DNA of 32,000 nt. It comes from an uncultured Planctomycetia bacterium. GTDB lineage: Bacteria > Omnitrophota > Gorgyraeia > Duberdicusellales > 4484-171. The position numbers were made by a program, and so were the translations under genes. Positions 1,476-23,053 of the stretch are shown here, one piece after another. Location: the NCBI GenBank assembly GCA_964536865.1, contig CAZHYN010000016.1, forward strand, positions 1 through 32,000, in the 5' to 3' direction. The notes under the pieces are model-generated. The model was not told where the DNA came from, ran no database searches, and worked only from the letters and a program-made list of their open reading frames with translations. Positions within the stretch are counted from its first letter, which is position 1. Each line of letters opens with the position of its first letter.

Positions 1476-1849
1476 ATGAGAGCTATTAATAATAAAGAGA
1501 AGTTATTCCAAATATGTAAGAATAATGACATTATATTTTTGGCAATATTTGGCTCCTTTGTAAAAGGAGGCTTTACAAAAAAAGCGATATTGACCTTTTG
1601 GTTCGTTTTTCTAAACCCAAAAGTCTCCTTGAGCTTGTAAGGATAGACAGAATATTTTCTGAGGTTTTGGGTAGAAAGACAGATTTATTAACCAAGGCCT
1701 CTATCAGTCCCTATTTAAGAGATAGGATTAAAAATGAGATGGAGGTGATTTATGAAAAAACGGGCAGTTTAGTCCACGACCAGAAAAGGTATTCCGATAC
1801 TAAAAGCAGAACTGAAACAAATTTTAAAGGATATAGAGAAGGAGGGTAA
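1476..1849 (+). pseudogene. MNT-type minimal nucleotidyltransferase (HEPN/MNT antitoxin family), frameshifted in an A7 run
   Basis: From ATG 1476: MRAINNKEKLFQICKNNDIIFLAIFGSFVKGGFTKK. After the A-run at 1577-1583 the homologous reading continues in another frame: SDIDLLVRFSKPKSLLELVRIDRIFSEVLGRKTDLLTK...EMEVIYEK. This matches the GSxxxG...DxD NTase signature. An A8 run would restore the frame. The tail after VIYEK (about 1764-1849) runs into the duplicated cassette leader. Confidence 0.7.
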
Positions 1850-1887
1850 CTGATGTATAAAAAGGTTATTTTTGGGAGTCTGGTTTT
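1821..1887 (+). repeat. Conserved cassette leader, copy A (5' UTR, RBS and first codons)
   Basis: attttaaaggatatagagaaggagggtaactgatgtataaaaaggttatttttgggagtctggtttt matches 3665-3731 with 4 mismatches in 67 nt. Confidence 0.9.
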
Positions 1888-2548
1888 GGCTGGGATGATG
1901 GGGTTAGCTATCGGGTTTTATAACTTATCCTGCTTTGCCCAGGGAGGAGAAACCATTACCATCACTACCTATTATCCTGCACCTTTCGGGGTATATAAGG
2001 AGTTGAGAGCAAAGAGGATGGCTATTGGAGATAATTACTATGATGCTTCTGGCTATGCTTGGGGAGTTAATATTGATTCTAATGCTGATTTGGTTGTTGA
2101 AGGCAATGTCGGTATCGGGACGATAACACCTCAGGATCTTCAAGATGGCCGAGACATAAAACTTGATGTTAAAAACAATATCATTACTGACGATGTATAT
2201 TTAAGGAATCCTAAAAATGGTAATGCCAGATGGGCGAGTGAAGGAGCGGGTGGTATAATAATACATAGATTTGAGAATTTACCTAACGATGGAGATACTA
2301 ACACAGGAATTTCTGCTGATGCTTATTATTGTGTAGCTACTGGATGGTCTGCTGATTGGGATACTCAAGAGGATGGTAGTGGGATCAATATGGTCTGGAC
2401 CCATTCCTCAGGTGGAACTTGGTGGATTCGTGCTCAGTTTCATAGCCATAAAGGTAGACATGAACACCCAGACGTAGATGTATTATGTTTTCCAAAAGAA
2501 ATGGTTACATGGCAGGGGGCTTCAACTTCGTTAAATAGACCGGATTAA
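1853..2548 (+). CDS. Secreted protein, cassette paralog 1 (signal peptide, TITTYYPAPFGVY module, tail-fibre-like GNVGIGT motif, Trp/His-rich C-terminal domain)
   Basis: RBS aggaggg upstream. N-terminus MYKK plus a hydrophobic core plus FAQ|GG. ETITITTYYPAPFGVYKEL is shared with 3697..4299. LVVEGNVGIGTITPQ resembles the GNVGIGT motif common in tail-fibre and adhesin-like proteins. I recognise no family for the C-terminal half. Confidence 0.8.
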   Translation: MYKKVIFGSLVLAGMMGLAIGFYNLSCFAQGGETITITTYYPAPFGVYKELRAKRMAIGDNYYDASGYAWGVNIDSNADLVVEGNVGIGTITPQDLQDGRDIKLDVKNNIITDDVYLRNPKNGNARWASEGAGGIIIHRFENLPNDGDTNTGISADAYYCVATGWSADWDTQEDGSGINMVWTHSSGGTWWIRAQFHSHKGRHEHPDVDVLCFPKEMVTWQGASTSLNRPD

Positions 2549-2592
2549 TAAACAAAATAGAGATGTTTCTCAAGAATGAGTAATCAGGGCTT

Positions 2593-2657
2593 AAGGTCTT
2601 GATTTTTGAACAAGTTCGAAATTGATAACACATACCCATTTGAAAATCAAGAGCCTT
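2593..2657. repeat. Long imperfect inverted repeat (about 17-bp stem, one bulge, ~28-nt loop)
   Basis: aaggtcttgatttttgaa (2593-2610) pairs with tttgaaaatcaagagcctt (2639-2657). It is 45 nt downstream of the 1853..2548 stop. No T-tract follows it. Confidence 0.7.
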
Positions 2658-2698
2658 GAGGTCGTAAAGATTAAATGTAAATAAAATAAGTAGGAAAA

Positions 2699-2962
2699 AT
2701 GGGGGCAGCTCTATTTTTCTTGCAGAAGAAGAGATTGGAAAAGTGGTCCGAAATCCAAAAAGAGAAATGTGGTTTAAAAAAGTTCTCAATTTTTGGACTA
2801 CCATATGGGGTGTATAATCAGCTGGAGGCTAACAAATTGGCAGTAGGGGATACGAATGACGATGAAAATTTAACTGCTGCTCACCAGCCAGACGCGGATA
2901 AAGCTGAGGATTTCGGCCCTCTCAATGAGAGATATTTGAGGAAGGCGCTACAGGTATATTAA
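2699..2962 (+). pseudogene. Deletion relic fusing the 5' part of a cassette-2-type gene to the 3' end of an M64-like peptidase gene
   Basis: From ~2801, PYGVYNQLEANKLAVGDTNDDENLTA parallels PYGVYNELQSNKLAVGDTNDDGELTA of 3697..4299 (nt ~80% to 3838-3917). Then PDADKAEDFGPLNERYLRKALQ parallels the last residues PDKAEDFGPVNERYLRKELER of 4350..5108. There is no signal peptide and no metalloprotease core. The first ~100 nt of the ORF have no homology. Confidence 0.75.
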
Positions 2963-2973
2963 GGTGTATACAA

Positions 2974-3471
2974 ATGCTTGATTATCTGGGTATTTTCAGG
3001 GAACTTAATAATAGGGAGATTAAATATATTGTTGTAGGAGGTATGGCGGTAAATTTTCACGGTATTCCTCGCGCTACTTATGATATTGATTTGTTGCTTT
3101 ATCTTGAAGATAGGAACCTTAAGAAATTTCTAATTCTGTTAAAGGAATGGGGTTTTAGGCCACGCGTTCCAGTTGACATTATGGATTTTGCTGATAAGAA
3201 AAAAAGGCAGGATTGGATAAAAAATAAAAATATGAAGGCATTTAATTTAATTAATCCTGACTGGGCAATCCGTGAAATTGATATCATAATCGATACCCCG
3301 GTAGATTATAAAAAGGCTATAAAATCTGTCAAGAATATCAAATTCTATAATGTAGTCGTTCCTACTATCTCCATAGATAATCTTATCTTAATGAAAAGCA
3401 AATCAAATAGAGAGCAGGATAAGGCTGATATAAGGAATCTTAGAAAGCTGTTGAAATATGGCAAAAAATAA
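2974..3471 (+). CDS. Nucleotidyltransferase-fold protein (DUF2204/DUF6036-like)
   Basis: IKYIVVGGMAVNFHGIPRATYDIDLLL fits the GG.A...HG..R.T.DID pattern of small stand-alone NTases. This is recalled from memory, not searched. Confidence 0.6.
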   Translation: MLDYLGIFRELNNREIKYIVVGGMAVNFHGIPRATYDIDLLLYLEDRNLKKFLILLKEWGFRPRVPVDIMDFADKKKRQDWIKNKNMKAFNLINPDWAIREIDIIIDTPVDYKKAIKSVKNIKFYNVVVPTISIDNLILMKSKSNREQDKADIRNLRKLLKYGKK

Positions 3472-3631
3472 AGGTTTTGATTACTATTTGAGCATAAAAG
3501 CGATACGCGAATACCAAAAAATTCCCATTGAAAAGAGACTCCGCTGGTTATATCAGCTCAATCTTTTAAGAAAGGCCTATCCCAAAGAAATTATTAAGCT
3601 TCAGGATAAATTTCGGGAAGGAAAAATCTAA
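3458..3631 (+). CDS. Small 57-aa ORF overlapping the NTase stop by 14 nt (possible partner protein)
   Basis: Hand-translated: MAKNKGFDYYLSIKAIREYQKIPIEKRLRWLYQLNLLRKAYPKEIIKLQDKFREGKI*. It is absent from the ORF track, probably because of a length cut-off. The overlap suggests translational coupling. Confidence 0.45.
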   Translation: MAKNKGFDYYLSIKAIREYQKIPIEKRLRWLYQLNLLRKAYPKEIIKLQDKFREGKI

Positions 3632-3664
3632 GAATATGGACAAGCTTCCAAGCAATACAGTCCT

Positions 3665-3731
3665 ATTTTAAAGGATATAGAGAAGGGGGGTGAGTGATGT
3701 ATAAAAAGGTTATTTTAGGGAGTCTGGTTTT
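3665..3731 (+). repeat. Conserved cassette leader, copy B
   Basis: Matches 1821-1887 with 4 mismatches in 67 nt. The ATG is at the same offset (3697 vs 1853). Confidence 0.9.
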
Positions 3732-4299
3732 ATTTCTGGCAGTGGGGCTGGTATTTGGCTTTGGGGTTTTATCTTCTTTTGCCCAGGAAGAGGAAAAAGA
3801 AGGAGAAACCATTACTATCACCACTTATTATCCCTCACCATATGGGGTGTATAATGAGCTGCAAAGCAACAAGCTCGCAGTAGGGGATACCAATGACGAT
3901 GGAGAGCTAACTGCTCTTGATTTGCCAAACAGAGATGGGGATATCCGGCTTAGGCCACAGCCAGGTAACCCTGATAATTGGGACCCTGGTGAGGAAGGGC
4001 AGTTTGCCTACTCAAAAGATGAGGAGGCTTTGTATCATTGGAGTGATTTTGAGTCTAAGTGGGTAAAGCAGGCAGGGGCAGGCACAGCAGTGATTTCTCT
4101 TAAGTGTAAATGGTGGTGCTTTAGAAGCTGGGCGGGTGGAATATTTTTCGGTTCCGCTTCGTGCGAACCACCTTCTTGTCCCTCTGACTGGACAGATCTT
4201 GGCACAGGCTGTGTGTGTACGAGCATGACTGATGCTACTGATAGCACCACTCCCCATAATTGCGCCGGTTATTGCGAGCGGTGGTGTAAAGAGGAGTAG
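3697..4299 (+). CDS. Secreted protein, cassette paralog 2 (signal peptide, TITTYYPSPYGVY module, EF-hand/dockerin-like loop, 9-Cys C-terminal domain)
   Basis: Start chosen at ATG 3697 by analogy with 1853; the track ORF begins at GTG 3694. Signal peptide ends in FAQ|EEE. DTNDDGELTALD fits DxNxDGxLxxxD. The last 64 aa contain 9 Cys (CKWWC, CEPPSC, CVC, CAGYCERWC). Confidence 0.8.
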   Translation: MYKKVILGSLVLFLAVGLVFGFGVLSSFAQEEEKEGETITITTYYPSPYGVYNELQSNKLAVGDTNDDGELTALDLPNRDGDIRLRPQPGNPDNWDPGEEGQFAYSKDEEALYHWSDFESKWVKQAGAGTAVISLKCKWWCFRSWAGGIFFGSASCEPPSCPSDWTDLGTGCVCTSMTDATDSTTPHNCAGYCERWCKEE

Positions 4300-4349
4300 A
4301 AATGTAGTCAGAATTATTTTTAATTAGGAAACCTTGAGATTAAATTCTG

Positions 4350-5108
4350 ATGCGTTTATTTGTTTTGCTTTTTTGTTTCTGGTGTTTTGCTTTTAGTTGT
4401 TTTGCCTATGATATTGAGTCTTATTATTCAGAAAAGATACCAGAGAGTGTTCTTAACCTTGTATTCTGCCCTTTAAGTTATCAGGATAAAGAAATCTTCC
4501 TTAAGGATATAGATATAATTATTGAGAGGTTAGGCAAAACCAGGCCATTTGATGAATTTGTAGAGAAAATAGGTTTTTATTATATTAACCTCTCCAGAGA
4601 AGAAGAAAATACGATTTTTAAAAGAACTCAGGGTTTTCCACCTCTTAAGGTTCGCCAGGATTTTTTAGATAATATTTTAGATGAGCTTAACTCTAAATAT
4701 AAACTAATCATCATTGATTATTCAGGTTCTGTCTCCTGTGCTGAGCTTTCCTCAATTGATAAGGTGTCTTTGGTTATCTTAGGAAGAAAAAGGTATAAAA
4801 ACAGAAGCAGTTTTGCTAAAGGGTTTTTACATGAGTTGGGTCATTGCCTTGGTCTTCGTGATGAATGTGTTAATTGCGAAAGGCTCTGTCCTCCAGGGCC
4901 ACCTAATTGTGCCACAACTGAAGAAGAAGCAAAGAGGTGGTGGGCTGATCTGGTAGGAAAAAAGCCGAGAGTAAACTACATTGCTGGCTGCTGTGGGAAT
5001 AAAGACTATATCCGGCCAACCATTGCCTCATTGATGAATAACCCCGATAAGGCCGAGGATTTTGGTCCGGTGAATGAGAGGTATTTGAGAAAGGAATTAG
5101 AAAGATAA
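4350..5108 (+). CDS. Secreted Zn-metallopeptidase, peptidase M64 (IgA-peptidase)-like
   Basis: Hydrophobic signal peptide MRLFVLLFCFWCFAFSCFAY. HELGHCLGLRDE (4830-4865) fits the HExxHxxxLxDE arrangement of M64. Upstream, NLVFCPLSYQD...RPFDEF...FYYINL and KLIIIDYSGS resemble the M64 core. A Cys-rich stretch follows the active site. Confidence 0.6.
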   Translation: MRLFVLLFCFWCFAFSCFAYDIESYYSEKIPESVLNLVFCPLSYQDKEIFLKDIDIIIERLGKTRPFDEFVEKIGFYYINLSREEENTIFKRTQGFPPLKVRQDFLDNILDELNSKYKLIIIDYSGSVSCAELSSIDKVSLVILGRKRYKNRSSFAKGFLHELGHCLGLRDECVNCERLCPPGPPNCATTEEEAKRWWADLVGKKPRVNYIAGCCGNKDYIRPTIASLMNNPDKAEDFGPVNERYLRKELER

Positions 5109-5114
5109 CGCCTA

Positions 5115-5285
5115 ACCGAAACCGACCGACGAAGCCAATGGACGATAGCACCCTTGGTTTTGTAAAGCGGTTGTGGTTACGGCTAATACTCCTGCGGAGT
5201 AGTTCATAGCTCATAGTCATGATTAAAAGACGATAGACGAAACTGATAGACGAAACCAATACTTAGCCGAAACCGATAGACGATA
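5115..5285. repeat. Relatively GC-rich intergenic tract with degenerate short direct repeats (gatagacga / ccgaaaccga)
   Basis: gatagacga at 5232-5240, 5245-5253 and 5275-5283. ccgaaaccga at 5115-5124 and 5267-5276. A related gacgatagca is at 5141-5150. No frame is open. Confidence 0.6.
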
Positions 5286-15102: not shown

Positions 15103-16395
15103 ATGTACGTTAAAAGGATGCTAAAAGTTGTTCTTTTTTTCATCCTAGTTTCTGTTGCAGGAAGCTGTATAAAAAGAGAAAAGATTCCTCACCTAGTTAT
15201 CTGGCATTGGATGGTTGATCGTCAGAGTGCTTTTCAAGCTCTGGCTGAAAAGTATGAGTCTGAAACAGGGGTAAAAGTAGATTTTAAATTGTTTTTCCCT
15301 CCAGATATTTACTCCCAGAAGGTGATTGCTGCTGCTCGTGCGGGAAATCTTCCTGATATATTTGGTATTCTGGGGGAGAAGAGAATGTTAGCTTCTTTTG
15401 TAAAAGCAGGACATATTTTAGACTTAACTCCTTCGATGAAAGAGGATAGTGATGCTTGGGGGAAAAGATTTTATCCCCAGACTTTAAGGATAGTTAGTTT
15501 CCCTCCTAATAATATCTATCAGGTTCCTTCAGGCATCTACGGTGTTCCCATCGATACTACTGTTTTGCAATTTCTCTATAACAAAAGCCTGTTTCGAGAA
15601 GCAGGATTAGACCCTCAATCTCCTCCCAAGAGTTTTGGTGATCTTATAAGTTATGCTCAGCAGACAAAGAGTAAATTAGGTATTGATGGATTTGTATGTG
15701 GATGGGCAGAATCATGGCTTCTTAATGCTTTGGCTACAGAATGGGCGATAAATTTAATGGGGGAGGAGAAGTTTTTAAAGACCCTGAAAGGAGACGTCTC
15801 TTATACAGATGAGGATTGGATAAAAGTTTTTTCTCTGTTTGCTAAGTTGAAAGAATCAGGAATTTTAGCTCCTAATATAACTACAATGACCAATAAAGAA
15901 GCAGAAGATGCTTTTGCTAAAAGTAAAGCTGTTTTCTCTTTTAATGGTAGTTGGGCAGTTAATGTGTATAGGCAGTTAAATCCTAAGTTGGAGTATGCCT
16001 TCTTCCCTCTTCCTCAAGTTTCCTCAAGTTTCCCTATTAAAGTGTGGGGAGGAGCAGGTTCCTCTTTTATGGTTAATGCTCATTCTCCTTATAAGGATAA
16101 AGCAGTTAAGTTCCTAAAGTGGCTTACCTTGCCAGAGCAGCAGAAGTTCCTAATCGAAGCAACCAATAACCTTCCTGCGATTAAGGGATGTGAGGATAGT
16201 TTACCTCCTTTGCTTAAGAGTCTAACTGAGAGCTTTGCTATTCTTACTCACCCTGATATTTGGCCTTACAATGAGGATTCTCGAGTTATCGAGGTAATGA
16301 ATAGAGGTCTTCAGCAGATCGTTATGGGGTTAAAGACTCCCCTTGAGGTGGCTAAGGAGATTCAGACTACAAAAGAGAGATTATCACAGAGATGA
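15103..16395 (+). CDS. ABC sugar transporter, extracellular solute-binding protein (family 1)
   Basis: Signal/lipoprotein-like N-terminus (VSVAGSC). General similarity to MalE/UgpB-type binding proteins. Followed by two permease genes. Confidence 0.85.
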   Translation: MYVKRMLKVVLFFILVSVAGSCIKREKIPHLVIWHWMVDRQSAFQALAEKYESETGVKVDFKLFFPPDIYSQKVIAAARAGNLPDIFGILGEKRMLASFVKAGHILDLTPSMKEDSDAWGKRFYPQTLRIVSFPPNNIYQVPSGIYGVPIDTTVLQFLYNKSLFREAGLDPQSPPKSFGDLISYAQQTKSKLGIDGFVCGWAESWLLNALATEWAINLMGEEKFLKTLKGDVSYTDEDWIKVFSLFAKLKESGILAPNITTMTNKEAEDAFAKSKAVFSFNGSWAVNVYRQLNPKLEYAFFPLPQVSSSFPIKVWGGAGSSFMVNAHSPYKDKAVKFLKWLTLPEQQKFLIEATNNLPAIKGCEDSLPPLLKSLTESFAILTHPDIWPYNEDSRVIEVMNRGLQQIVMGLKTPLEVAKEIQTTKERLSQR

Positions 16396-17288
16396 AAAGA
16401 TGGTCTTGGGATAGATTTCAGAATTTCTCTTTTATTTTCCCAGCTCTTGTTATATTTTCTATCTTTTATATTTACCCTTTTTTCTATACGTTTGTTCTTA
16501 GTTTTCAAGATTACGATTTTATCTCTACGCCAAAATTTATTGGTTTCAGCAATTTCCGTGAAGTTCTTACTGATAGAGAATGGTGGTCATCAATGTATAA
16601 TGGAGCTTTTATTACCTTGTGGGCTTTAACTTTTCAGAATATTTTAGCATTTATGCTTGCTTTAGGGGTAGATAGAGTCATAAGGATGAATAAATTTTAC
16701 CGAGTAGTATTTTTTATGTTACCTATTCTCTCAGAGATTATAATCGGCTTGCTTATGAAGCAACTTTTGAGTTCCGAACCTTTAGGTAGAGATATATTCA
16801 ACCGCTGGATAACCAATTTAGGTTTAGGATTTTTTGCTCAAGACTGGTTAGGATCTCAGCGGGTAAGATTAGTTACTGCTTTGGTGCACTGCTGGAAAGG
16901 ATTTGGCTGGGCATTTGTAATTTTCTTAGCGGGCCTTCAAAATGTTCCTCAACAGCTTTATGAAGCTGCCCGTATAGATGGAGCGAATGCCTGGCAGGTT
17001 TTTAGAAAAATTACTTTACCTTTACTTACTCCCGTAATTGCTCTGGTATTGGTTCTTACCATCTTGGGGACAATGCAAGCTTTTGCTATGATTCTTGCTT
17101 TAACTGGAGGAGCAGGAGGATTAACTGAAGTTCCTGTTATGAGAATTTATAATCATTTAAGGTTTAGGTTAGCAGGATTAGCTTGTGCCGAGGGGGTAAT
17201 TCTAGGTTTAATTTTAATAGTAGTTTCCTTCGGGATGTTTTTTATATCTAAGAAGATAAGAGAGAAATATGGGGTATTACCGAGCTAA
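16392..17288 (+). CDS. ABC sugar transporter permease (MalF/UgpA-like)
   Basis: EAA loop: LYEAARIDGANAWQVFRKITLPLL. Multiple TM segments. Confidence 0.88.
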   Translation: MKRWSWDRFQNFSFIFPALVIFSIFYIYPFFYTFVLSFQDYDFISTPKFIGFSNFREVLTDREWWSSMYNGAFITLWALTFQNILAFMLALGVDRVIRMNKFYRVVFFMLPILSEIIIGLLMKQLLSSEPLGRDIFNRWITNLGLGFFAQDWLGSQRVRLVTALVHCWKGFGWAFVIFLAGLQNVPQQLYEAARIDGANAWQVFRKITLPLLTPVIALVLVLTILGTMQAFAMILALTGGAGGLTEVPVMRIYNHLRFRLAGLACAEGVILGLILIVVSFGMFFISKKIREKYGVLPS

Positions 17289-18303
17289 GAAGATATTTAT
17301 TTTAGTGCTTATTCATACCTTTCTTATGAGTGTGGCATTAAGCTGTCTCCTTCCTTTCTTCTGGATGGTTAATGTTTCCTTTAAGAGTCAAGAAGAATTT
17401 GATAAGGGTTATGTGGCTAAAAAAGCATTTTCTCCTCAACAGCTGGAAGAATTACTTGCAGATAAGATAGTGAAGGAAGCTAAATTTAACCGTAAGTTTC
17501 TAATCTGGAATATTTCCACTGAAGATATGTTGATGGTGAAGTTGGCTCAGTCCAGAGTAGAAGATAGAGATAAAATCTTAAAAATATGGAGAAGAACTCG
17601 GGACTATGGATTAAAGCCCCCTCTAAGTTTAAACTTGAGTAACTATAAAGAGGTTATATTCAGAGAGAAGTTTTGGTGTTACTTCTTAAATAGTGTTTTT
17701 TACACTTTTGTTACTGTATGTTCTATCGTAATTATTTCTTCCCTTGCTGCTTATGCCTTTTCTCGTTTACACTTTCCCGGCAGAAACGTTATATTCTATA
17801 TGTTCCTGGCAGCAATGATGATTCCTCTTCCTGCAGGTTTTGTTCCTGTATACGTACTGTTGAATAAATTTCATCTAGTAAACAGGACAGGGTATGTTTT
17901 GGCAATGACCAACGTAGGTCTTTCTCTAAGTATCTATCTTTTAAAGACTTTTTTTGATCAGCTTCCTAAAGATTTAGAAGATGCTGCACGAATCGATGGA
18001 TGCAATAAACTCAGGATTTGGTGGAATGTTGGGTTACCTTTGGTAGCTCCCGCTTTAGGCGTAGTGATAATATTTAACGCTTTGAATGTATGGAATGAAT
18101 TTGTATTAGCTTCCCTTATGTTTACCGCTGAGGAGCTAATGCCTTTACAGGTAGGGTTGATGGAGTTTTCCAATCGCATGGTTACTCAACATACCTTAAT
18201 TGCTTCTGCTCTAACAGTAGCTGCCTTACCTATAATTCTTCTCTATTTAAGACTTCAGAGGCAGTTTATTAAAGGCCTTACTGCGGGAGCAATGGTAGGA
18301 TGA
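17269..18303 (+). CDS. ABC sugar transporter permease (MalG/UgpE-like) with an enlarged first extracytoplasmic loop
   Basis: EAA loop: LEDAARIDGCNKLRIWWNVGLPL. A hydrophilic segment of ~100 aa lies between TM1 and TM2. Confidence 0.88.
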   Translation: MGYYRAKKIFILVLIHTFLMSVALSCLLPFFWMVNVSFKSQEEFDKGYVAKKAFSPQQLEELLADKIVKEAKFNRKFLIWNISTEDMLMVKLAQSRVEDRDKILKIWRRTRDYGLKPPLSLNLSNYKEVIFREKFWCYFLNSVFYTFVTVCSIVIISSLAAYAFSRLHFPGRNVIFYMFLAAMMIPLPAGFVPVYVLLNKFHLVNRTGYVLAMTNVGLSLSIYLLKTFFDQLPKDLEDAARIDGCNKLRIWWNVGLPLVAPALGVVIIFNALNVWNEFVLASLMFTAEELMPLQVGLMEFSNRMVTQHTLIASALTVAALPIILLYLRLQRQFIKGLTAGAMVG

Positions 18304-20585
18304 GGTATAAATTGCGAAGTTTTCCACAATTAAAAGTTGTATTTCTTTCTTGTCTATTTTCTCTCTTTTCTTGCTATATTTATGGAAATGCTCAGGACTC
18401 TTCTCACTATGTAAACAAAGCTTGGGCTCAGTTGGGAAAAAGAAATTTTAAAGAAGTTTACAGTCTTGTTGAGGAATGTATTAAAAGGTATGCCTCTCAA
18501 GCAGATAGTTTAGCTCAAAAGTTGAGTAGTTTTCCTCCTCAAGGTAAAGAGAGTAGCTACCAGGTTATGAATGATGTAGCTACCTGTTACTTTATAAAAG
18601 GGGAAGCTTTAATGCGTGAGGGGAAAATAGAGGAAGCAAAGAAAGTTTTTAAAGAGGTTATAAAGAAGTATCCTTTTGCTTCTGCATGGGATCCTCGAGG
18701 GTGGTTTTGGTCTATTAAAGAAAAAGCGGAGATTACTTTGAGGAAATTAGAGAAGGGAATTATAGAAGAGGAAGAGGAAAAAAAGGTCATTATAACTAAA
18801 GTCAGTTTACATGACGGGGGAGAGGAATTTCCTGTTGATTACTCTCGATATGGGGAGTTCAAAAATTTAGGAACTTCTGAGTATACCTATGTTATTAAGG
18901 ATCCTATAGGGTTAGCTAAAGCAGTAGGAGAAGGAATATACCCCAATACTACCTCTGTAAAATTTGACCCTAATTTTGTGAAAGTGAGAAAAAAACTATC
19001 TAAGATTGACCATTGGAAGATTCTTAATTCCCGAAACCTCTCACTTGCTTTTTACAAATGGTGTATAGCTCCAGAACCTCAAGGAGTGAAGCAGTTTTAT
19101 ATTGGAGATATTTTAGAGAAAAGTGGGCTTATAAAACAGGCAATAAAGGCTTACTATGCAGTATTAGTTCATTTCCCTAAAACTATAGGATGGACTTATT
19201 GGAATACTCCTTGGTATGTAGGGAAGACTGCTCTGTACCGGATAAAGTTTCTTCTTAAAGAGTATCCAGAACTAAATTTGAAGTTAGAGGGTGCATATAT
19301 AAAAGTTAAAAATGGGACTAACAACAATGTAAGAGATGATATTTTCATTGTTAATCCTGGGAGACTGGTGCCAAAATCTCTAAAAGATAGGCTGATTTAT
19401 TTTAAGAAAAGGAAGTTAGGTAAGCCTATAAAGATCCAAGGCAAAGGAAAGGTAAAATTGGTAAGATATCAAAGTGGGGATTGGCAGCTATTAGTAGATG
19501 ATTTCCCTTTTATAGTAAAAGGGATGACTTATTCTCCTACTAAAGTAGGGGAGTCTCCTGATGAAGGAACACTATCTAATTGGATGTACCAGGATACCGA
19601 TAACGATGGGATAATTGATGCTCCTTATCAAGCATGGATAGATAAAAATAGGAATAATATTAAAGATGAAGACGAAGAGGTGGTAGGTGATTTTCGTCTT
19701 ATGAGAGAGATGGGAGTAAACTGCATAAGAATTTATCATCAGCCTTTTAAATTGAATAAGAAAATCTTAAGGGATTTATATTACAATTATGGAATCTACA
19801 CTGCGGTAGGAGATTTTTTGGGAAAATATGCTTTAGGAAGTGGAGCAAGCTGGGAAGAGGGTACCGACTATGATAATCCTCTTCATCAAGAGAATATGCT
19901 TAATAGTGTGAGAGAGATGGTAGAGGAGTTTAAGGATGAGCCATATATTCTGTTTTGGATTTTAGGTAATGAGAATGTTTACGGGATTGCCTGTAATGCT
20001 GATAAAAAGCCCATTAGTTTCTTTAGATTTGCTAATCAAGCAGCAAAACTGATTAAGTCCTTGGATCCTTTTCAAAGACCTGTGGCTATTGCTTCAGGAG
20101 ACATTCTTTATTTGCATATCTTCGCTAAGGAATGTCCAGATATCGATATCTTTGGTACCAACGCTTACCGTGGTAGGTACGGATTTTTAGATTTATGGGA
20201 AGAAGTAAAAACCCTTGCTGATAAGCCTGTAGTAGTAACTGAATACGGAGCTCCCTCTTATGGTAGTGGGTATACTCAGGAGGAAGCAGAGACTTATCAA
20301 GCGGGTTATCATAAGAATGCCTGGTTAGATATTTATGAAAATCGTGCAGGGTATGGTCAGGGGAACAGTTTAGGAGGATTCGTATTTGAGTGGGTTGATG
20401 AGTGGTGGAAGGCTTACGAACCTGGATATCACGATAGGAAAGGAGTATTTGCAGGTCCTTTCTTAGATGGATATATGCACGAAGAATGGTTAGGAGTATG
20501 TAGTCAAGGAGATGGTAAACATTCTCCTTTTTTAAGGCAATTAAAGAAGGTTTATTTTACTTATCAGAAGTTGTGGAAAAAGTAG
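18300..20585 (+). CDS. Secreted multidomain glycoside hydrolase (TPR-like N-terminus plus clan GH-A (beta/alpha)8 domain)
   Basis: Signal peptide. WILGNENVYG (acid/base NE), VVVTEYGAPSYG (nucleophile E), GGFVFEWVDEWWK and EEWLGV. Paralogous to 21827..23053. Confidence 0.7.
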   Translation: MRYKLRSFPQLKVVFLSCLFSLFSCYIYGNAQDSSHYVNKAWAQLGKRNFKEVYSLVEECIKRYASQADSLAQKLSSFPPQGKESSYQVMNDVATCYFIKGEALMREGKIEEAKKVFKEVIKKYPFASAWDPRGWFWSIKEKAEITLRKLEKGIIEEEEEKKVIITKVSLHDGGEEFPVDYSRYGEFKNLGTSEYTYVIKDPIGLAKAVGEGIYPNTTSVKFDPNFVKVRKKLSKIDHWKILNSRNLSLAFYKWCIAPEPQGVKQFYIGDILEKSGLIKQAIKAYYAVLVHFPKTIGWTYWNTPWYVGKTALYRIKFLLKEYPELNLKLEGAYIKVKNGTNNNVRDDIFIVNPGRLVPKSLKDRLIYFKKRKLGKPIKIQGKGKVKLVRYQSGDWQLLVDDFPFIVKGMTYSPTKVGESPDEGTLSNWMYQDTDNDGIIDAPYQAWIDKNRNNIKDEDEEVVGDFRLMREMGVNCIRIYHQPFKLNKKILRDLYYNYGIYTAVGDFLGKYALGSGASWEEGTDYDNPLHQENMLNSVREMVEEFKDEPYILFWILGNENVYGIACNADKKPISFFRFANQAAKLIKSLDPFQRPVAIASGDILYLHIFAKECPDIDIFGTNAYRGRYGFLDLWEEVKTLADKPVVVTEYGAPSYGSGYTQEEAETYQAGYHKNAWLDIYENRAGYGQGNSLGGFVFEWVDEWWKAYEPGYHDRKGVFAGPFLDGYMHEEWLGVCSQGDGKHSPFLRQLKKVYFTYQKLWKK

Positions 20586-20612
20586 AAAAAACAAAAGTTA
20601 GCTAAAATACTC

Positions 20613-20642
20613 TTGAAAACGCTTACAGAAAAAAGGTATAAT
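20613..20642 (+). promoter_or_regulatory. Candidate internal promoter (TTGAAA-18-TATAAT)
   Basis: ttgaaa at 20613-20618 and tataat at 20637-20642, upstream of 20665. Confidence 0.4.
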
Positions 20643-20664
20643 ATAAAAACTATCAAGGAGGTGA

Positions 20665-21837
20665 ATGATGAAAAGGATAGGTAAGATTGTGTTGACCATT
20701 TCTATCTTGTGGAGTCTAAGTTTCTTAGGGTATGCTCAGGAGAACATTTTCTATATTTATCAAGATAAAAATTCACCCTCTAATCACTTCATCCCTAGTG
20801 GATGGATGGGCGATTATGGAGATTTGAAGTTTAATGACCAATCTACCGAGGAGGTAGCTTCAGGTTCTACATCTATCAAGATAACTTATACTGCCAAAAA
20901 ATCACAAGGTCAGGGTTGGGCAGGAATTTATTGGCAGTCCTCCGCTAATAACTGGGGTTCTCGTCAAAGTGGGTATGACCTTACAGGGTTTAACAAGTTA
21001 GTATTTAAGGCTAAAGGCAAAGAAGGGGGAGAAGTAATTACTAAGGTAAAAGTAGGAGGAATTGTAAGAGATTCCCAAGGTAATCTTTTACCTTACCCTG
21101 ATACTGTAGATAAAGAATACGGACCTATAAGACTAACTGATCAATGGCAGGAGTTTTACATTAATCTAGCAGGAGAAGATCTTTCCTATGTAAATGGAGG
21201 ATTTTGTATTGTGTTTAATGCTGATCAGGCTCAAAAAGAACAGACTATTTATCTCGATGATATGTACTTTACTTATGATACTACGCTTAAGAAGGAAGAG
21301 GTAAAGACGGTTTTCCCTTTTTATGTTTATGCCGATAGTGGTTCTTTAGATAATCACTTTGTCCCCAGTGGATGGATGCCTGCCACTGCTGCTCAAGATC
21401 TGAAGATGTATATTAATTGGAAGGAAGCACCTTTGAGTGGAGATTCCTGTATCCGTATAGAGTATACTAATAAATCTGGCACACGCTGGGCAGGGATTTA
21501 CTGGCAAAATCCTCCTAATAATTGGGGGACTATCCCCAATGCCGGATTTGATTTAAGAGGAGCAACTAAGCTTACCTTTTGGGCAAAGGGAGAACGTGGA
21601 GGAGAGATAATTAATGAGTTTAAAGTAGGAGGTATATCTAGTGGAGATTATCCCGACTCTGACAGTGCTTCCCTGGGCCCTATTCAGCTTACTAAAGAGT
21701 GGAAAAAATATGAAATTGATCTAAGAGGTAAGGATCTCTCCTATGTAATAGGAGGATTCTGCTGGGCAACTAACATAGATGTGAATGATCCTAATGGGAT
21801 TGTCTTCTACCTTGATGAAATAAAATATGAGGAATAA
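20665..21837 (+). CDS. Secreted protein with two tandem carbohydrate-binding-module-like domains
   Basis: Signal peptide GYA|QE. Internal duplication: NHFIPSGWMGD...WAGIYWQSSANNWG...GYDLTGFNKLVFKAKGKEGGEVI..VKVGG vs NHFVPSGWMP...WAGIYWQNPPNNWG...GFDLRGATKLTFWAKGERGGEII..FKVGG. ATG 20668 is an alternative start. Confidence 0.7.
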   Translation: MMKRIGKIVLTISILWSLSFLGYAQENIFYIYQDKNSPSNHFIPSGWMGDYGDLKFNDQSTEEVASGSTSIKITYTAKKSQGQGWAGIYWQSSANNWGSRQSGYDLTGFNKLVFKAKGKEGGEVITKVKVGGIVRDSQGNLLPYPDTVDKEYGPIRLTDQWQEFYINLAGEDLSYVNGGFCIVFNADQAQKEQTIYLDDMYFTYDTTLKKEEVKTVFPFYVYADSGSLDNHFVPSGWMPATAAQDLKMYINWKEAPLSGDSCIRIEYTNKSGTRWAGIYWQNPPNNWGTIPNAGFDLRGATKLTFWAKGERGGEIINEFKVGGISSGDYPDSDSASLGPIQLTKEWKKYEIDLRGKDLSYVIGGFCWATNIDVNDPNGIVFYLDEIKYEE

Positions 21838-23053
21838 TGATATCTTCCTTAAGGCAGCTATAATTTTTAGCTGCCTTATTTTTTTTCCTCTAATTATCAG
21901 TGCTAAAGTTACTATCCAGAAGAATTCTCAAGGAGGATATCAACTCTACGTAGACAAAAGACCCTTCCTTATAAAAGGAGTAATTTACAATCCTACTCCT
22001 GTATGTGGTGGCTACGATTATGTTTTTTTGGCTGATACTAAGAAACCTTGGCTTGTGGATGGTAAATTGATGAAAGAGATGGGAGTAAATACCGTAAGGA
22101 TATACTTTTGTTGTGCTCAGTTAGATAAAGTTAAGGAGTTTATAAGGGATATGTATACTAATTTTGGTATCTATACTATCGTAAGTGACTGGTTAGGATT
22201 GTGGGATAAACCTTCTCCTAATTATGCTGACAGGGAATCTCGTGAAAGAATAAAAATGAATATTCTTAAGATAGTAAAGGCATTAAAAGACGAAGAAGGA
22301 CTTCTTATGTGGATTTTGGGTAACGAAAATAATTATACTTTCTCAGGAAAGATTGCTTTCTGGACTTCTCCTGAAATAGAAGAAATTCCTGATCTTTATA
22401 AGAGAGTATTAAAGCGAGCAGAGATTTACTATTCTTTTGTTGATGAGTTGGCTAAGGAAATTAAGAAGATAGATCCCAACCATCCTGTAGCTTTAGGTAA
22501 TGGAGAAGTGAGTACTTTAGATGTAGCCTCTCGGGTGTGTAAAAATATTGATGCCTTAGCTATTATTTCTTATCGAGGTAAGCGTTTTGGGAATCTTTTT
22601 GAGAATATAAGATATGTTTTTGATAAACCTGTTCTAATTTCCGAATTTGGTTGCGACTCTTATGATGCTTACCGTAATAAGGAAGCCGAAGATATCCAAG
22701 CTGAATATATACAACTTCAATGGAGCTCTATATTTAAAAACACAACTTTTTGTGGTGACGAACGAGGCAACTGTATAGGGGCAACCTTATTTGAATGGAG
22801 TGATGAATGGTGGAAGCATAACCAAGGGTATACTCCTGATTGGTGTGTGCATAATACTCAAGCAGGGTGGTCTAACGGTTCCTACTATTTTGATATAAGA
22901 GCAAAGGATAATTTAAATATGAATGAGGAGTGGTTTGGGATAGTAAAACTTCTTGAGGAGAAAGACGAGAAAGGATTAAATAAGCGAGTTCCTAAAAAAG
23001 CTTACTATATCCTTAAAGATATTTGGAATAAACCACTTCCTACCTCTTCTTAA
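21827..23053 (+). CDS. Secreted clan GH-A glycoside hydrolase (catalytic domain only)
   Basis: Signal peptide. MKEMGVNTVRIY, WILGNENNY, VLISEFGCDSYD, ATLFEWSDEWWK and NEEWFGIV. Confidence 0.7.
   Translation: MRNNDIFLKAAIIFSCLIFFPLIISAKVTIQKNSQGGYQLYVDKRPFLIKGVIYNPTPVCGGYDYVFLADTKKPWLVDGKLMKEMGVNTVRIYFCCAQLDKVKEFIRDMYTNFGIYTIVSDWLGLWDKPSPNYADRESRERIKMNILKIVKALKDEEGLLMWILGNENNYTFSGKIAFWTSPEIEEIPDLYKRVLKRAEIYYSFVDELAKEIKKIDPNHPVALGNGEVSTLDVASRVCKNIDALAIISYRGKRFGNLFENIRYVFDKPVLISEFGCDSYDAYRNKEAEDIQAEYIQLQWSSIFKNTTFCGDERGNCIGATLFEWSDEWWKHNQGYTPDWCVHNTQAGWSNGSYYFDIRAKDNLNMNEEWFGIVKLLEEKDEKGLNKRVPKKAYYILKDIWNKPLPTSS

Follow-up and report, generated by a model that had tools for sequence, protein, structure and literature searches.

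The window analysed here, the first 32,000 nucleotides (32 kb) of contig CAZHYN010000016.1 from an uncultured bacterium of the Omnitrophota lineage, contains two tandem genes, named A and B, followed by the gene of a secreted M64-like zinc metallopeptidase. Genes A and B probably (at a rough probability of 0.65) encode exported, tail-fibre-like receptor-binding proteins of a large family, which has so far been named only from Omnitrophota. The two proteins share a short N-terminal module, referred to as the tag, and end in unrelated tips. In related loci, short members of the gene B class recur beside the same peptidase, and in several of them a diversity-generating retroelement targets the tip. 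The features of the system are listed below, all on the plus strand.

1821..1852, + strand: leader of gene A, the 32 nucleotides (nt) 5' of the ATG including the GGAGGG ribosome-binding site; first copy of a 67-nt repeat
1853..2548, + strand: gene A, 231 amino acids (aa), with signal peptide, module, stalk and Trp/His-rich tip
3665..3696, + strand: leader of gene B; second copy of the 67-nt repeat and duplication boundary
3697..4299, + strand: gene B, 200 aa, with signal peptide, acidic linker, module, stalk and 9-Cys tip
4350..5108, + strand: secreted M64-like zinc metallopeptidase, 252 aa, identified from its signal peptide, HELGH motif, homologues and fold matches

Genes A and B share their start and differ in their ends

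The starts of the two genes lie in a 67-nt direct repeat (1821-1887 and 3665-3731), which the repeat finder reports at 94% identity with four mismatches, in line with the initial annotation of a shared leader, ribosome-binding site and start region. The repeat comprises the 32 nt before the ATG, with the GGAGGG or GGGGGG ribosome-binding site, and the first 35 coding bases. Because the homology of the copies starts only 32 nt before the ATG, the "shared 5' untranslated region" of that annotation is merely the boundary of a tandem duplication. The mechanically called open reading frame (ORF) of gene B opens one codon earlier, at a GTG. Weaker repeats extend over the module-coding DNA, at 1945-2033/3801-3889 (73%) and 2800-2893/3837-3930 (78%).

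The two proteins are 62% identical across residues 1-61/65 (BLASTP, E 1e-22) and show no similarity beyond, which agrees with the divergence after about residue 60 described earlier. Both begin with MYKKVI(F/L)GSLVL...FAQ, followed by GETITITTYYP(A/S)P(F/Y)GVY(K/N)EL, so that the signal peptide ending in FAQ and the conserved mature N-terminus are present as previously noted. In gene A, the signal peptide occupies residues 1-30 and ends in FAQ, and the module profile matches nt 1946-2110. The module is followed by the stalk (RMAIGDNYYD...ADLVVEGNVGIGT), the junction DDVYLRNPKNGNARWASEGAGG and a rare Trp/His-rich tip; the GNVGIGT segment and the Trp/His-rich end expected in one of the genes are both found here. 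Gene A is identical to P0186, a protein encoded on a 359-kb public contig, whose 90%-identity cluster has a member named Candidatus Omnitrophota.

In gene B, the signal peptide (residues 1-30) is followed by the acidic linker EEEKE and by the module at nt 3802-3963. The segment D64-T-N-D-D-G-E-L-T-A-L-D75 matches the dockerin/EF-hand-type Ca-loop pattern DxNxDGxxxxxD and is, by this pattern, a dockerin-like loop with putative calcium binding, while the gene A counterpart GDNYYDASGYAW does not fit the pattern. The stalk motif GDIRLRPQPGNP..W.PGEEGQFAYS...ALYHW....KWV leads to a tip with exactly 9 Cys (nt ~4081-4296), which terminates in CAGYCERWCKEE. A Ca loop and a 9-Cys domain had both been attributed to this gene, and both are confirmed. 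No significant family is identified by Pfam or NCBIfam in gene A, in gene B or in a remnant ORF between them, in line with the initial annotation, which could assign the module to no named family. Faint matches to Imm3, RumC and FXa_inhibition, and a match of YNELQTNKLAVGD to the neck repeat of DC-SIGNR, were treated as chance.

The N-terminal module defines a large family

A profile of the module (56 positions) was searched against 1.84 billion representative proteins, and matches 3,859 protein clusters at E ≤ 1e-3, of which 855 reach E ≤ 1e-10. In the 150 listed best matches, the module starts at residues 10-49 of proteins that are 69-596 aa in length. In about 100 inspected N-termini, a typical signal peptide ending in ...FA(E/Q) is separated by one to a few acidic residues from x-ITITTYYP-[SA]-P-[YF]-G. 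The consensus of the tag spans ~55 aa, [DE][DE]x-ITITTYYP-[SA]-P-[YF]-G-x-Y-N-x-L-Q-x-N-K-L-A-V-G-D-x-N-x-D-G, in which a short strand and a Pro-x-Pro-x-Gly turn precede a dockerin-like Ca loop. Dockerin_1 is found at sub-threshold level in 6 of 50 relatives, and the module profile aligns to the Ca loop of the dockerin 2ccl_B.

In an alignment of 136 members, Y45, P46, P48 and G50 (gene B numbering) are invariant, and T40, I41, T42, T43, Y44, Y52, L55, G63, D64 and D75 are at least 90% conserved. The mean column identity over the whole alignment is only 7%. The module is the only part common to the 136 members, and their C-terminal Pfam domains differ, which supports the proposal of a constant N-terminal module with swappable C-termini. 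All family members named by their sources belong to Candidatus Omnitrophota. More than 450 module relatives are present in metagenome contigs, and none was found among the 2.9 million viral contigs of IMG/VR.

The AlphaFold model of gene B, built with 50 relatives, has a mean predicted local distance difference test score (pLDDT) of 79.9. Residues 59-200 are predicted, mostly with confidence, to be all-beta (10-residue blocks average 74-95, except for a single one at 63). For the module core (residues 31-58), the pLDDT is only ~50 in the monomer model, which suggests that this core is a linear element folding only with a partner or in an oligomer. A Foldseek search of the model against PDB and BFVD returns no relative at E ≤ 1e-3.

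A full-text literature search for the motif TTYYPSPYG retrieves no paper, and the family is mentioned neither in the Omnitrophota literature searched nor in the global retroelement survey. In the resources searched, no description was found of the module, the family or its coupling to a peptidase.

Variable stalks carry exchangeable tips

The regions following the module resemble phage tail fibres. In the Pfam scan, Peptidase_S74 is present in 18 of the 136 members (best E 1.3e-18), Dockerin_1 in three, Gp53-like_C and T4 gp36 in two each, and YadA_head, Lcl_C and H_lectin in one each. Peptidase_S74 acts in trimeric phage fibres as an intramolecular chaperone. Neither gene A nor gene B has an S74 match in Pfam; an N-terminal relative of gene A, P0178, ends in this domain. 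In many members the module is followed by GDVWIKGNVGIGT..P..KL.V repeats, and P0254 is named "tail fiber domain-containing protein" by its source.

The stalk is variable in length and is built either of GNVGIGT beta-helix-type repeats or of a hairpin motif, G.L.Y....LY.YNGS.W. In a retroelement-targeted relative, the stalk motif G.LVY....LY.YNGS.W gives sub-threshold matches to Mtd_N (E 0.013) and DUF2793. Tip exchange takes place at conserved junctions. P0281 retains the gene A stalk up to DDVYL.SPKSG..KWASEGGGG and then continues into a different Cys-rich knob, and the gene-B-type knob occurs twice at the end of P0168, a 338-aa fibre of the GNVGIGT type. The gene A tip is rare, with two homologues found.

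The peptidase has an M64-like fold

The peptidase gene begins 50 nt 3' of gene B, and its signal peptide ends in CFA, directly before YD. The catalytic motif HELGHCLGLRDE (residues 161-172, nt 4830-4865) reads H161-E-L-G-H165-C-L-G168-L-R-D171-E172, i.e. HEXXHXXGXXDE, which has the general metzincin/snapalysin spacing. The published M64 signature is HEXXHXXXGXXD (PMC12402451). The motif in the window has one residue fewer from its second His to its Gly and thus departs from this signature, and the enzyme is therefore named M64-like rather than a canonical member. Across 28 homologues there is no variation at E172, C187 and C214, and conservation of C215 is 90% or higher. In M64 enzymes, the Glu after the catalytic Asp and three Cys form a second zinc site (PMC12402451), and the conserved Glu and Cys of the peptidase could form such a second, structural site. 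Other conserved features are FLHELGHSLGLRDE, PNCA, GCCG and SLMN..DKAEDFGPVNERYL, the C-terminal motif SLMN...KAEDFGPVNERYL, and a Met-containing segment followed by DFGPVNERYL, as in M64.

A word-indexed search identifies 217 homologues at E ≤ 0.001. The 120 listed among them are 56-82% identical, and every source-named one among them is from Omnitrophota. The M64 family profile PF09471 is matched by 17 of 28 close homologues at E ≤ 0.1 (best E 2.3e-6); the window peptidase itself has no PF09471 match even at E ≤ 1 and reaches no Pfam threshold. A profile search against PDB yields IgA protease chains at E 0.002-0.09 only. The AlphaFold model has a pLDDT of 87.4 and a predicted template modelling (pTM) score of 0.85. 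In Foldseek, PDB ranks 1-17 are all M64 structures (9qdi, 4df9, 3p1v, 9ekk, 9qa6, 9i4z and 9qdh) and represent BF3526, BACOVA_00663 and the T. ramosa IgA protease. Their E-values lie between 3e-9 and 5e-7 and their query-normalised TM-scores between 0.63 and 0.68; other metzincins follow from E 1e-4 upward. The modelled peptidase is M64-like by its fold and weakly so by profile, and the M64-like enzyme proposed to adjoin gene B is thereby substantiated.

Remote relatives of the C-terminal half of the M64-like domain also occur in DPANN archaea (Pacearchaeota, Woesearchaeota, Aenigmatarchaeota and a metagenome-assembled genome (MAG) labelled Methanosarcinales), at loci L033 (2248-6315), L036 (4270-6495), L034, L035, L037 and L038. 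In L033 and L036, the M64-like region forms the C-terminus of giant Cys-rich secreted proteins of 741-1355 aa. L033 carries the canonical HEFGHAFGKLADEY ... DFGPVNER.

Short module genes are linked to the peptidase

In 19 of 27 Omnitrophota genomic loci seeded with the peptidase, the same strand carries a module gene no more than 2 kb away, and the fraction is 14/16 where at least 2 kb of upstream sequence is available. The spacing between the two genes is usually 0-60 nt, and the genes flanking the pair vary between loci. Conversely, the peptidase is found in 15 of 80 metagenome loci seeded with the module. The dependence on protein length was evaluated for module genes with at least 2.5 kb of downstream sequence (n = 29, nine linked). 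Linkage is seen for 8/13 proteins with a mature length up to 185 aa, for 1/11 between 185 and 260 aa and for 0/5 above 260 aa. Linkage thus falls with length, indicating that the peptidase partners the short Cys-rich proteins, the subclass of gene B, rather than the family at large. The recurrent linkage suggested by the initial annotation consequently holds for this subfamily and fails for the longer members.

Clustering of neighbouring ORFs identifies the peptidase (41 loci), bAvd (12) and reverse transcriptase (9) as the recurrent non-housekeeping partners. The remaining recurrent clusters (up to nine loci) are housekeeping genes, unannotated or overlapping ORFs, and no recurrent usher, secretin, anchor or small immunity-like gene was found among them. 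The pair duplicates as a unit. Locus L009 (2188-6704) contains a tandem array of module, peptidase fragment, module, peptidase and module, and the MAG JBAZIT01 has three separate peptidase loci (L018, L027 and L028), two of them with retroelements.

Retroelements target the tips of relatives

Diversity-generating retroelement genes accompany the pair in at least eight related loci. In L010 and L018, a reverse transcriptase (PF00078, E 1e-17 to 1e-27) and bAvd (PF22296, E 1e-23 to 1e-25) are located between the module gene and the peptidase. The same arrangement is observed in L015, L047, L065 and L118, and the two genes are adjacent to the pair in L020 and L028. Remnants are found in L016, L017 and the N-terminus of P0024, and P0050 is a read-through from reverse transcriptase into peptidase.

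Pairs of variable region and template repeat are present in six loci (L015, L018, L020, L047, L065 and L118). In these, the module gene ends in a stretch of ~100-130 nt that is matched downstream by a template repeat with many AAC codons, and most of the mismatches fall at template adenines (13/17 in L018, 18/22 in L065 and 14/21 in L118). The concentration of mismatches at adenines, together with the template repeat, is the signature of a diversity-generating retroelement and marks the tip as its target. The targeted tips are all of the "...FFRPPGGGC..GW...GEGCLCCQ" type, and the gene B "CAGYCERWCKEE" tip can be aligned with them at PPSCPSGWT and at the final Cys. This link between retroelements and the gene-B-type tip in sister genomes was absent from the initial annotation and is added here.

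In L010 (4003-5985), the reverse transcriptase and bAvd stand beside a module gene of the "...GRSVRVCVK" type, and no template repeat matches the 3' end of this gene. For the "CERWC" tip of gene B, no template repeat is present in the window or in L008, L029 and L030, and the other "CERWC" loci, like the window, have no reverse transcriptase or bAvd. The GC content is 47.6% in gene B and 51% in its tail, compared with 36.5% in the window and 36.9% in the peptidase gene, and the adenine content of the tail is 20.5% vs 33% in the window. This GC-rich, A-poor tail could reflect past adenine mutagenesis and could equally reflect amino-acid composition. Retroelement targeting is characteristic of ligand-binding proteins (PMC8144416).

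Proposed function and alternatives

Taken as tail-fibre-like receptor-binding proteins, A and B would be tandem paralogues exported through Sec. The constant tag would dock, assemble or sort all members onto one common envelope structure, and the variable tips would attach to various ligands carried by hosts, prey or particles. Short proteins with Cys-rich knobs would make up the gene B class, each forming an operon-like pair with a minimal secreted M64-like metallopeptidase. Since a retroelement rewrites the knob in several sister genomes, the knob is probably a ligand-binding surface under diversifying pressure. The window would hold a retroelement-free version of the pair (gene B and peptidase), together with the extra paralogue gene A and a deleted copy. 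The peptidase most likely acts on or with its partner protein through the constant part of the latter, with the invariant, unstructured YYP-x-P-x-G as one candidate site. Two roles are considered, as it may clip this site or may be steered by the variable protein to ligands. The preference of characterised M64 enzymes for cleavage after proline (PMC12402451) leaves room for the earlier suggestion that the N-terminal strand may be a recognition tag for the peptidase. The general kind of protein, a tail-fibre-like adhesin with swappable or retroelement-diversified tips, is already known.

Several points weigh against this assignment. Arrival at the surface and formation of trimers are inferred, and genes A and B themselves have no S74 domain. 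For the gene B model, neither PDB nor BFVD yields a fold relative, so the designation as a receptor-binding tip derives from context. The retroelement-targeted tips observed are all of the GEGCLCCQ type and not of the "CERWC" type of gene B, and the 32-kb window contains neither a repeat of the 3' end of gene A or B nor a reverse transcriptase or bAvd (tblastn). Most module genes are not adjacent to a peptidase, which makes a general relationship between tag and peptidase hypothetical, and the neighbouring genes yield no partner structure for the tag. The family taxonomy is drawn from the minority of matches that carry names.

A bolder extension, which we regard as rather unlikely, is that the tag is a new sorting or assembly signal for thousands of Omnitrophota surface proteins, and that a short member and the peptidase form a two-component machine. 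In one version the peptidase may clip the tag at YYP-x-P-x-G and thereby activate assembly. In the other, the variable protein would target the protease, which, if true, would amount to a retroelement-programmable protease for attachment to or attack on host cells.

An improbable alternative is that the proteins form a protease-activated polymer resembling a type V pilus, with ITITTYY as a pro-strand or donor strand clipped by the M64-like peptidase. A cut at the invariant YYP-x-P-x-G (candidate cleavage peptide EESITITTYYPSPYGSYNEL) would trigger strand-exchange polymerisation, and the retroelement-diversified short proteins of relatives would be tip subunits. The strand and Pro-x-Pro lie no more than ~15 residues from the predicted start of the mature protein and lack structure in the monomer model, which fits this proposal, as do the preference of M64 enzymes for cleavage after proline and the action of BF3526 near N-termini (PMC12402451). 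The peptidase also duplicates with its module gene, both in the L009 array and in the MAG with three loci. Moreover, retroelements are reported to diversify the tip adhesins of Bacteroides type V pili, in the part of that account considered here (bioRxiv 10.1101/2024.11.15.621889). However, no lipobox or lipoprotein signal is present as in type V pilins, no usher-like or stalk-subunit gene recurs nearby, and the S74 chaperones and beta-helix repeats of many members typify trimeric fibres, not pilins. In addition, most module genes have no peptidase nearby, and the cleavage is hypothetical.

We consider it just as doubtful that the variable protein is a targeting subunit, which binds the peptidase and steers it to the ligands of the tip (retroelement-diversified in relatives), the pair being a two-component effector against surface proteins of host or prey. 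The peptidase is a bare catalytic domain of ~230 aa, compared with ~400 aa for BF3526 and BACOVA_00663 and >840 aa for the T. ramosa enzyme, and the latter requires the Fab region of IgA for substrate recognition (PMC12402451). The tight 1:1 adjacency, with its 0-60 nt spacing and duplication as a unit, also suits a two-subunit enzyme, as does the fusion of the same catalytic domain to very large Cys-rich, dockerin-like regions in DPANN archaea. This support is contextual and the interaction hypothetical; no homology links the N-terminal regions of the archaeal proteins to the module proteins, and the operon partnership may instead reflect maturation.

That the proteins are fibres of a prophage or tailocin, docked by their conserved N-terminus onto the baseplate of a phage-derived particle, is very unlikely. 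The tail-fibre-type domains of the family (Peptidase_S74, gp53-like and T4 gp36), the sub-threshold Mtd_N and DUF2793 matches and the mobile-element debris beside the cassette would agree with it. However, the members carry Sec signal peptides, unlike cytoplasmically assembled phage fibres, the neighbours are housekeeping genes without capsid, tail or baseplate genes, and viral contigs of IMG/VR contain no relatives. Least likely of all is a polymorphic toxin family, in which an N-terminal trafficking domain would be joined to swappable C-terminal toxins, each with an immunity gene: the constant N-terminus, hypervariable C-termini and tandem paralogue arrays would agree with it, but the toxin half of the "polymorphic surface or toxin" reading in the initial annotation is disfavoured by the absence of toxin domains at E ≤ 0.01 from the 136 members (a lone Ntox1 match among 50 has E 0.77) and of a recurrent small immunity-like gene downstream, by tips that are Cys-rich knobs, lectins or chaperone domains, and by retroelement targeting, typical of ligand-binding proteins (PMC8144416).

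A decayed copy and the neighbourhood of the cassette

Two further features are located between genes A and B.

2699..2962, + strand: decayed cassette, recognised from module and peptidase profile matches, a repeat and the intact counterparts P0002 and P0003
2974..3631, + strand: toxin-antitoxin-like pair, outside the system (Pfam PF19502)

ORF 2699-2962 matches two profiles, that of the module at positions 14-46 (E 9e-13) and that of the peptidase over its final 26 positions (E 2e-7). In it, a module fragment at nt 2801-2899 (PYGVYNQLEANKLAVGDTNDDENLTAA) runs in frame into the final ~26 codons of a peptidase gene, at nt 2876-2953 (PDADKAEDFGPLNERYLRKALQ), and the ORF contains neither a signal peptide nor the ITITTYYP strand. 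The two profile matches point to an internal deletion from the module to the peptidase end with the gene order kept, in accordance with the decayed third copy recognised earlier. The same fusion is intact in other assemblies as secreted ORFs of 92 and 100 aa (P0002 and P0003), which consist of the signal peptide, the module and the last ~25 peptidase residues, and have the same deletion junction as the window remnant. A small ORF in L091 (1758-1979) likewise has the remnant-type junction. In L032 (6001-6177), a 358-aa module gene is followed by only a C-terminal fragment of the peptidase.

The region 2974-3631 looks like a toxin-antitoxin-like pair inserted between the decayed cassette and gene B. 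It encodes a DUF6036/AbiEii-like nucleotidyltransferase of 165 aa (2974-3471; PF19502, E 2.9e-8) and an overlapping 57-aa ORF (3458-3631). The related locus L041 has a simpler order, nucleotidyltransferase, gene-B-like gene and peptidase, with no such insertion among them, and its upstream DNA resembles that before gene A: the DNA of 1467-1849 is 85% identical to L041 383-667, upstream of the L041 module gene. This region of the window contains two overlapping ORFs in different frames with weak Polbeta/NTP_transf_2 matches, and resembles an MNT-type gene with a frameshift. A disrupted insertion-sequence remnant at the cassette edge consists of Mutator-family transposase pieces in two adjacent ORFs, 235-567 and 710-1075 (PF00872, E 2e-14 and 2e-18).

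The order in L041 and the matching upstream DNA suggest a history of the window arrangement. The cassette would have been duplicated in tandem, from 32 nt upstream of the ATG; one copy would then have gained another stalk and tip to become gene A, another would have been internally deleted to give the remnant 2699-2962, and the nucleotidyltransferase pair would have been inserted at 2974-3631. Tandem copies sharing their 5' halves are also found in L008, L009, L091 and L103.

On the 3' side, the cassette is followed by core genes including rplU, obg, proB, proA and nadD. The 290-nt spacer between the peptidase gene and rplU contains four degenerate copies of TAGACGAAACYGATAGACGA (5113-5283) and imperfect inverted repeats. 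An Rfam scan of the whole window gives no match, and promoter and terminator scans of the window remain at background level. About 10 kb downstream (15103-23053), a block encodes a sugar ABC transporter together with a 761-aa TPR+GH2 protein, one unknown protein of 390 aa and a GH72-like protein of 408 aa. A similar block (permeases, MFS, a 777-aa TPR+GH2 protein and three unknown proteins) is located directly upstream of a module-peptidase pair in L001 (1-9147).

Comparison with known systems

Known retroelement variable regions are C-type lectin folds, whereas the model shows the gene B tip as a small, Cys-rich, all-beta knob, in which a C-type lectin fold was not recognised. In other respects the homologous loci resemble those of known variable proteins (Bordetella phage Mtd, Treponema TvpA and cellular targets; PMC8144416), with variable 3' ends, a template repeat, reverse transcriptase and bAvd. 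As in most cellular targets (PMC8144416), an N-terminal signal peptide is combined with a C-terminal variable tip. Unlike these targets, the window copy has no retroelement, and for them no description was found of a conserved N-terminal tag or a peptidase partner.

The peptidase has its best folds among M64 enzymes such as the T. ramosa IgA protease and B. fragilis BF3526 (query-normalised TM-score ~0.65), and shares with them the HExxH followed by Gly and Asp-Glu. It differs in being a stand-alone catalytic domain without M64_N or accessory domain, and in carrying HExxHxxGxxDE rather than HExxHxxxGxxD. Its substrate cannot be IgA in this environmental lineage.

In the type V pili of Bacteroidia, subunits are activated by protease removal of an N-terminal strand, and tip adhesins are reported to be retroelement targets (bioRxiv 10.1101/2024.11.15.621889). 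These pilins are lipoproteins, which are processed by gingipain-type cysteine proteases and assembled by strand exchange. In contrast, the signal peptides of the present family end in ...FA before EE or in ...FAQ, with no lipobox, and no pilin fold or assembly gene was seen.

The closest functional analogue, compared at the level of architecture, is provided by the mosaic adhesive trimer (MAT) fibres of Bdellovibrio bacteriovorus, as described in the part of their account considered here (PMC10769870). In both cases, a small predatory or host-dependent bacterium has many paralogues with a signal peptide, an invariant N-terminal domain, a beta-helical fibre and exchangeable tips, which fall into S74-chaperone and non-S74 subclasses. 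The invariant N-terminal domain of MAT proteins is proposed to dock, assemble or sort the fibres onto a common structure, the anchoring role that the tag would have here. However, this domain is beta-rich and ~130 aa in length, whereas the conserved element of the present family is linear, ~55 aa, with an apparently unstructured core, and many members are tiny (150-230 aa). The coupling to an M64-like peptidase and to retroelements was not met in that part of the MAT account (PMC10769870).

Omnitrophota are ultra-small and uncultivated, and a dependence on other cells or predation upon them has been proposed for these bacteria (PMC10066038). The pairing of one subclass with a protease and the hypermutation by retroelements offer a testable system of tag, fibre, variable tip and protease, and the invariant 15-residue tag is a handle for metagenome cataloguing, antibodies and cleavage assays. 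The size of the family, its absence from Pfam and NCBIfam, and the parallel of its architecture with the prey-recognition fibres of Bdellovibrio make it a concrete candidate for the partner-recognition apparatus of Omnitrophota.

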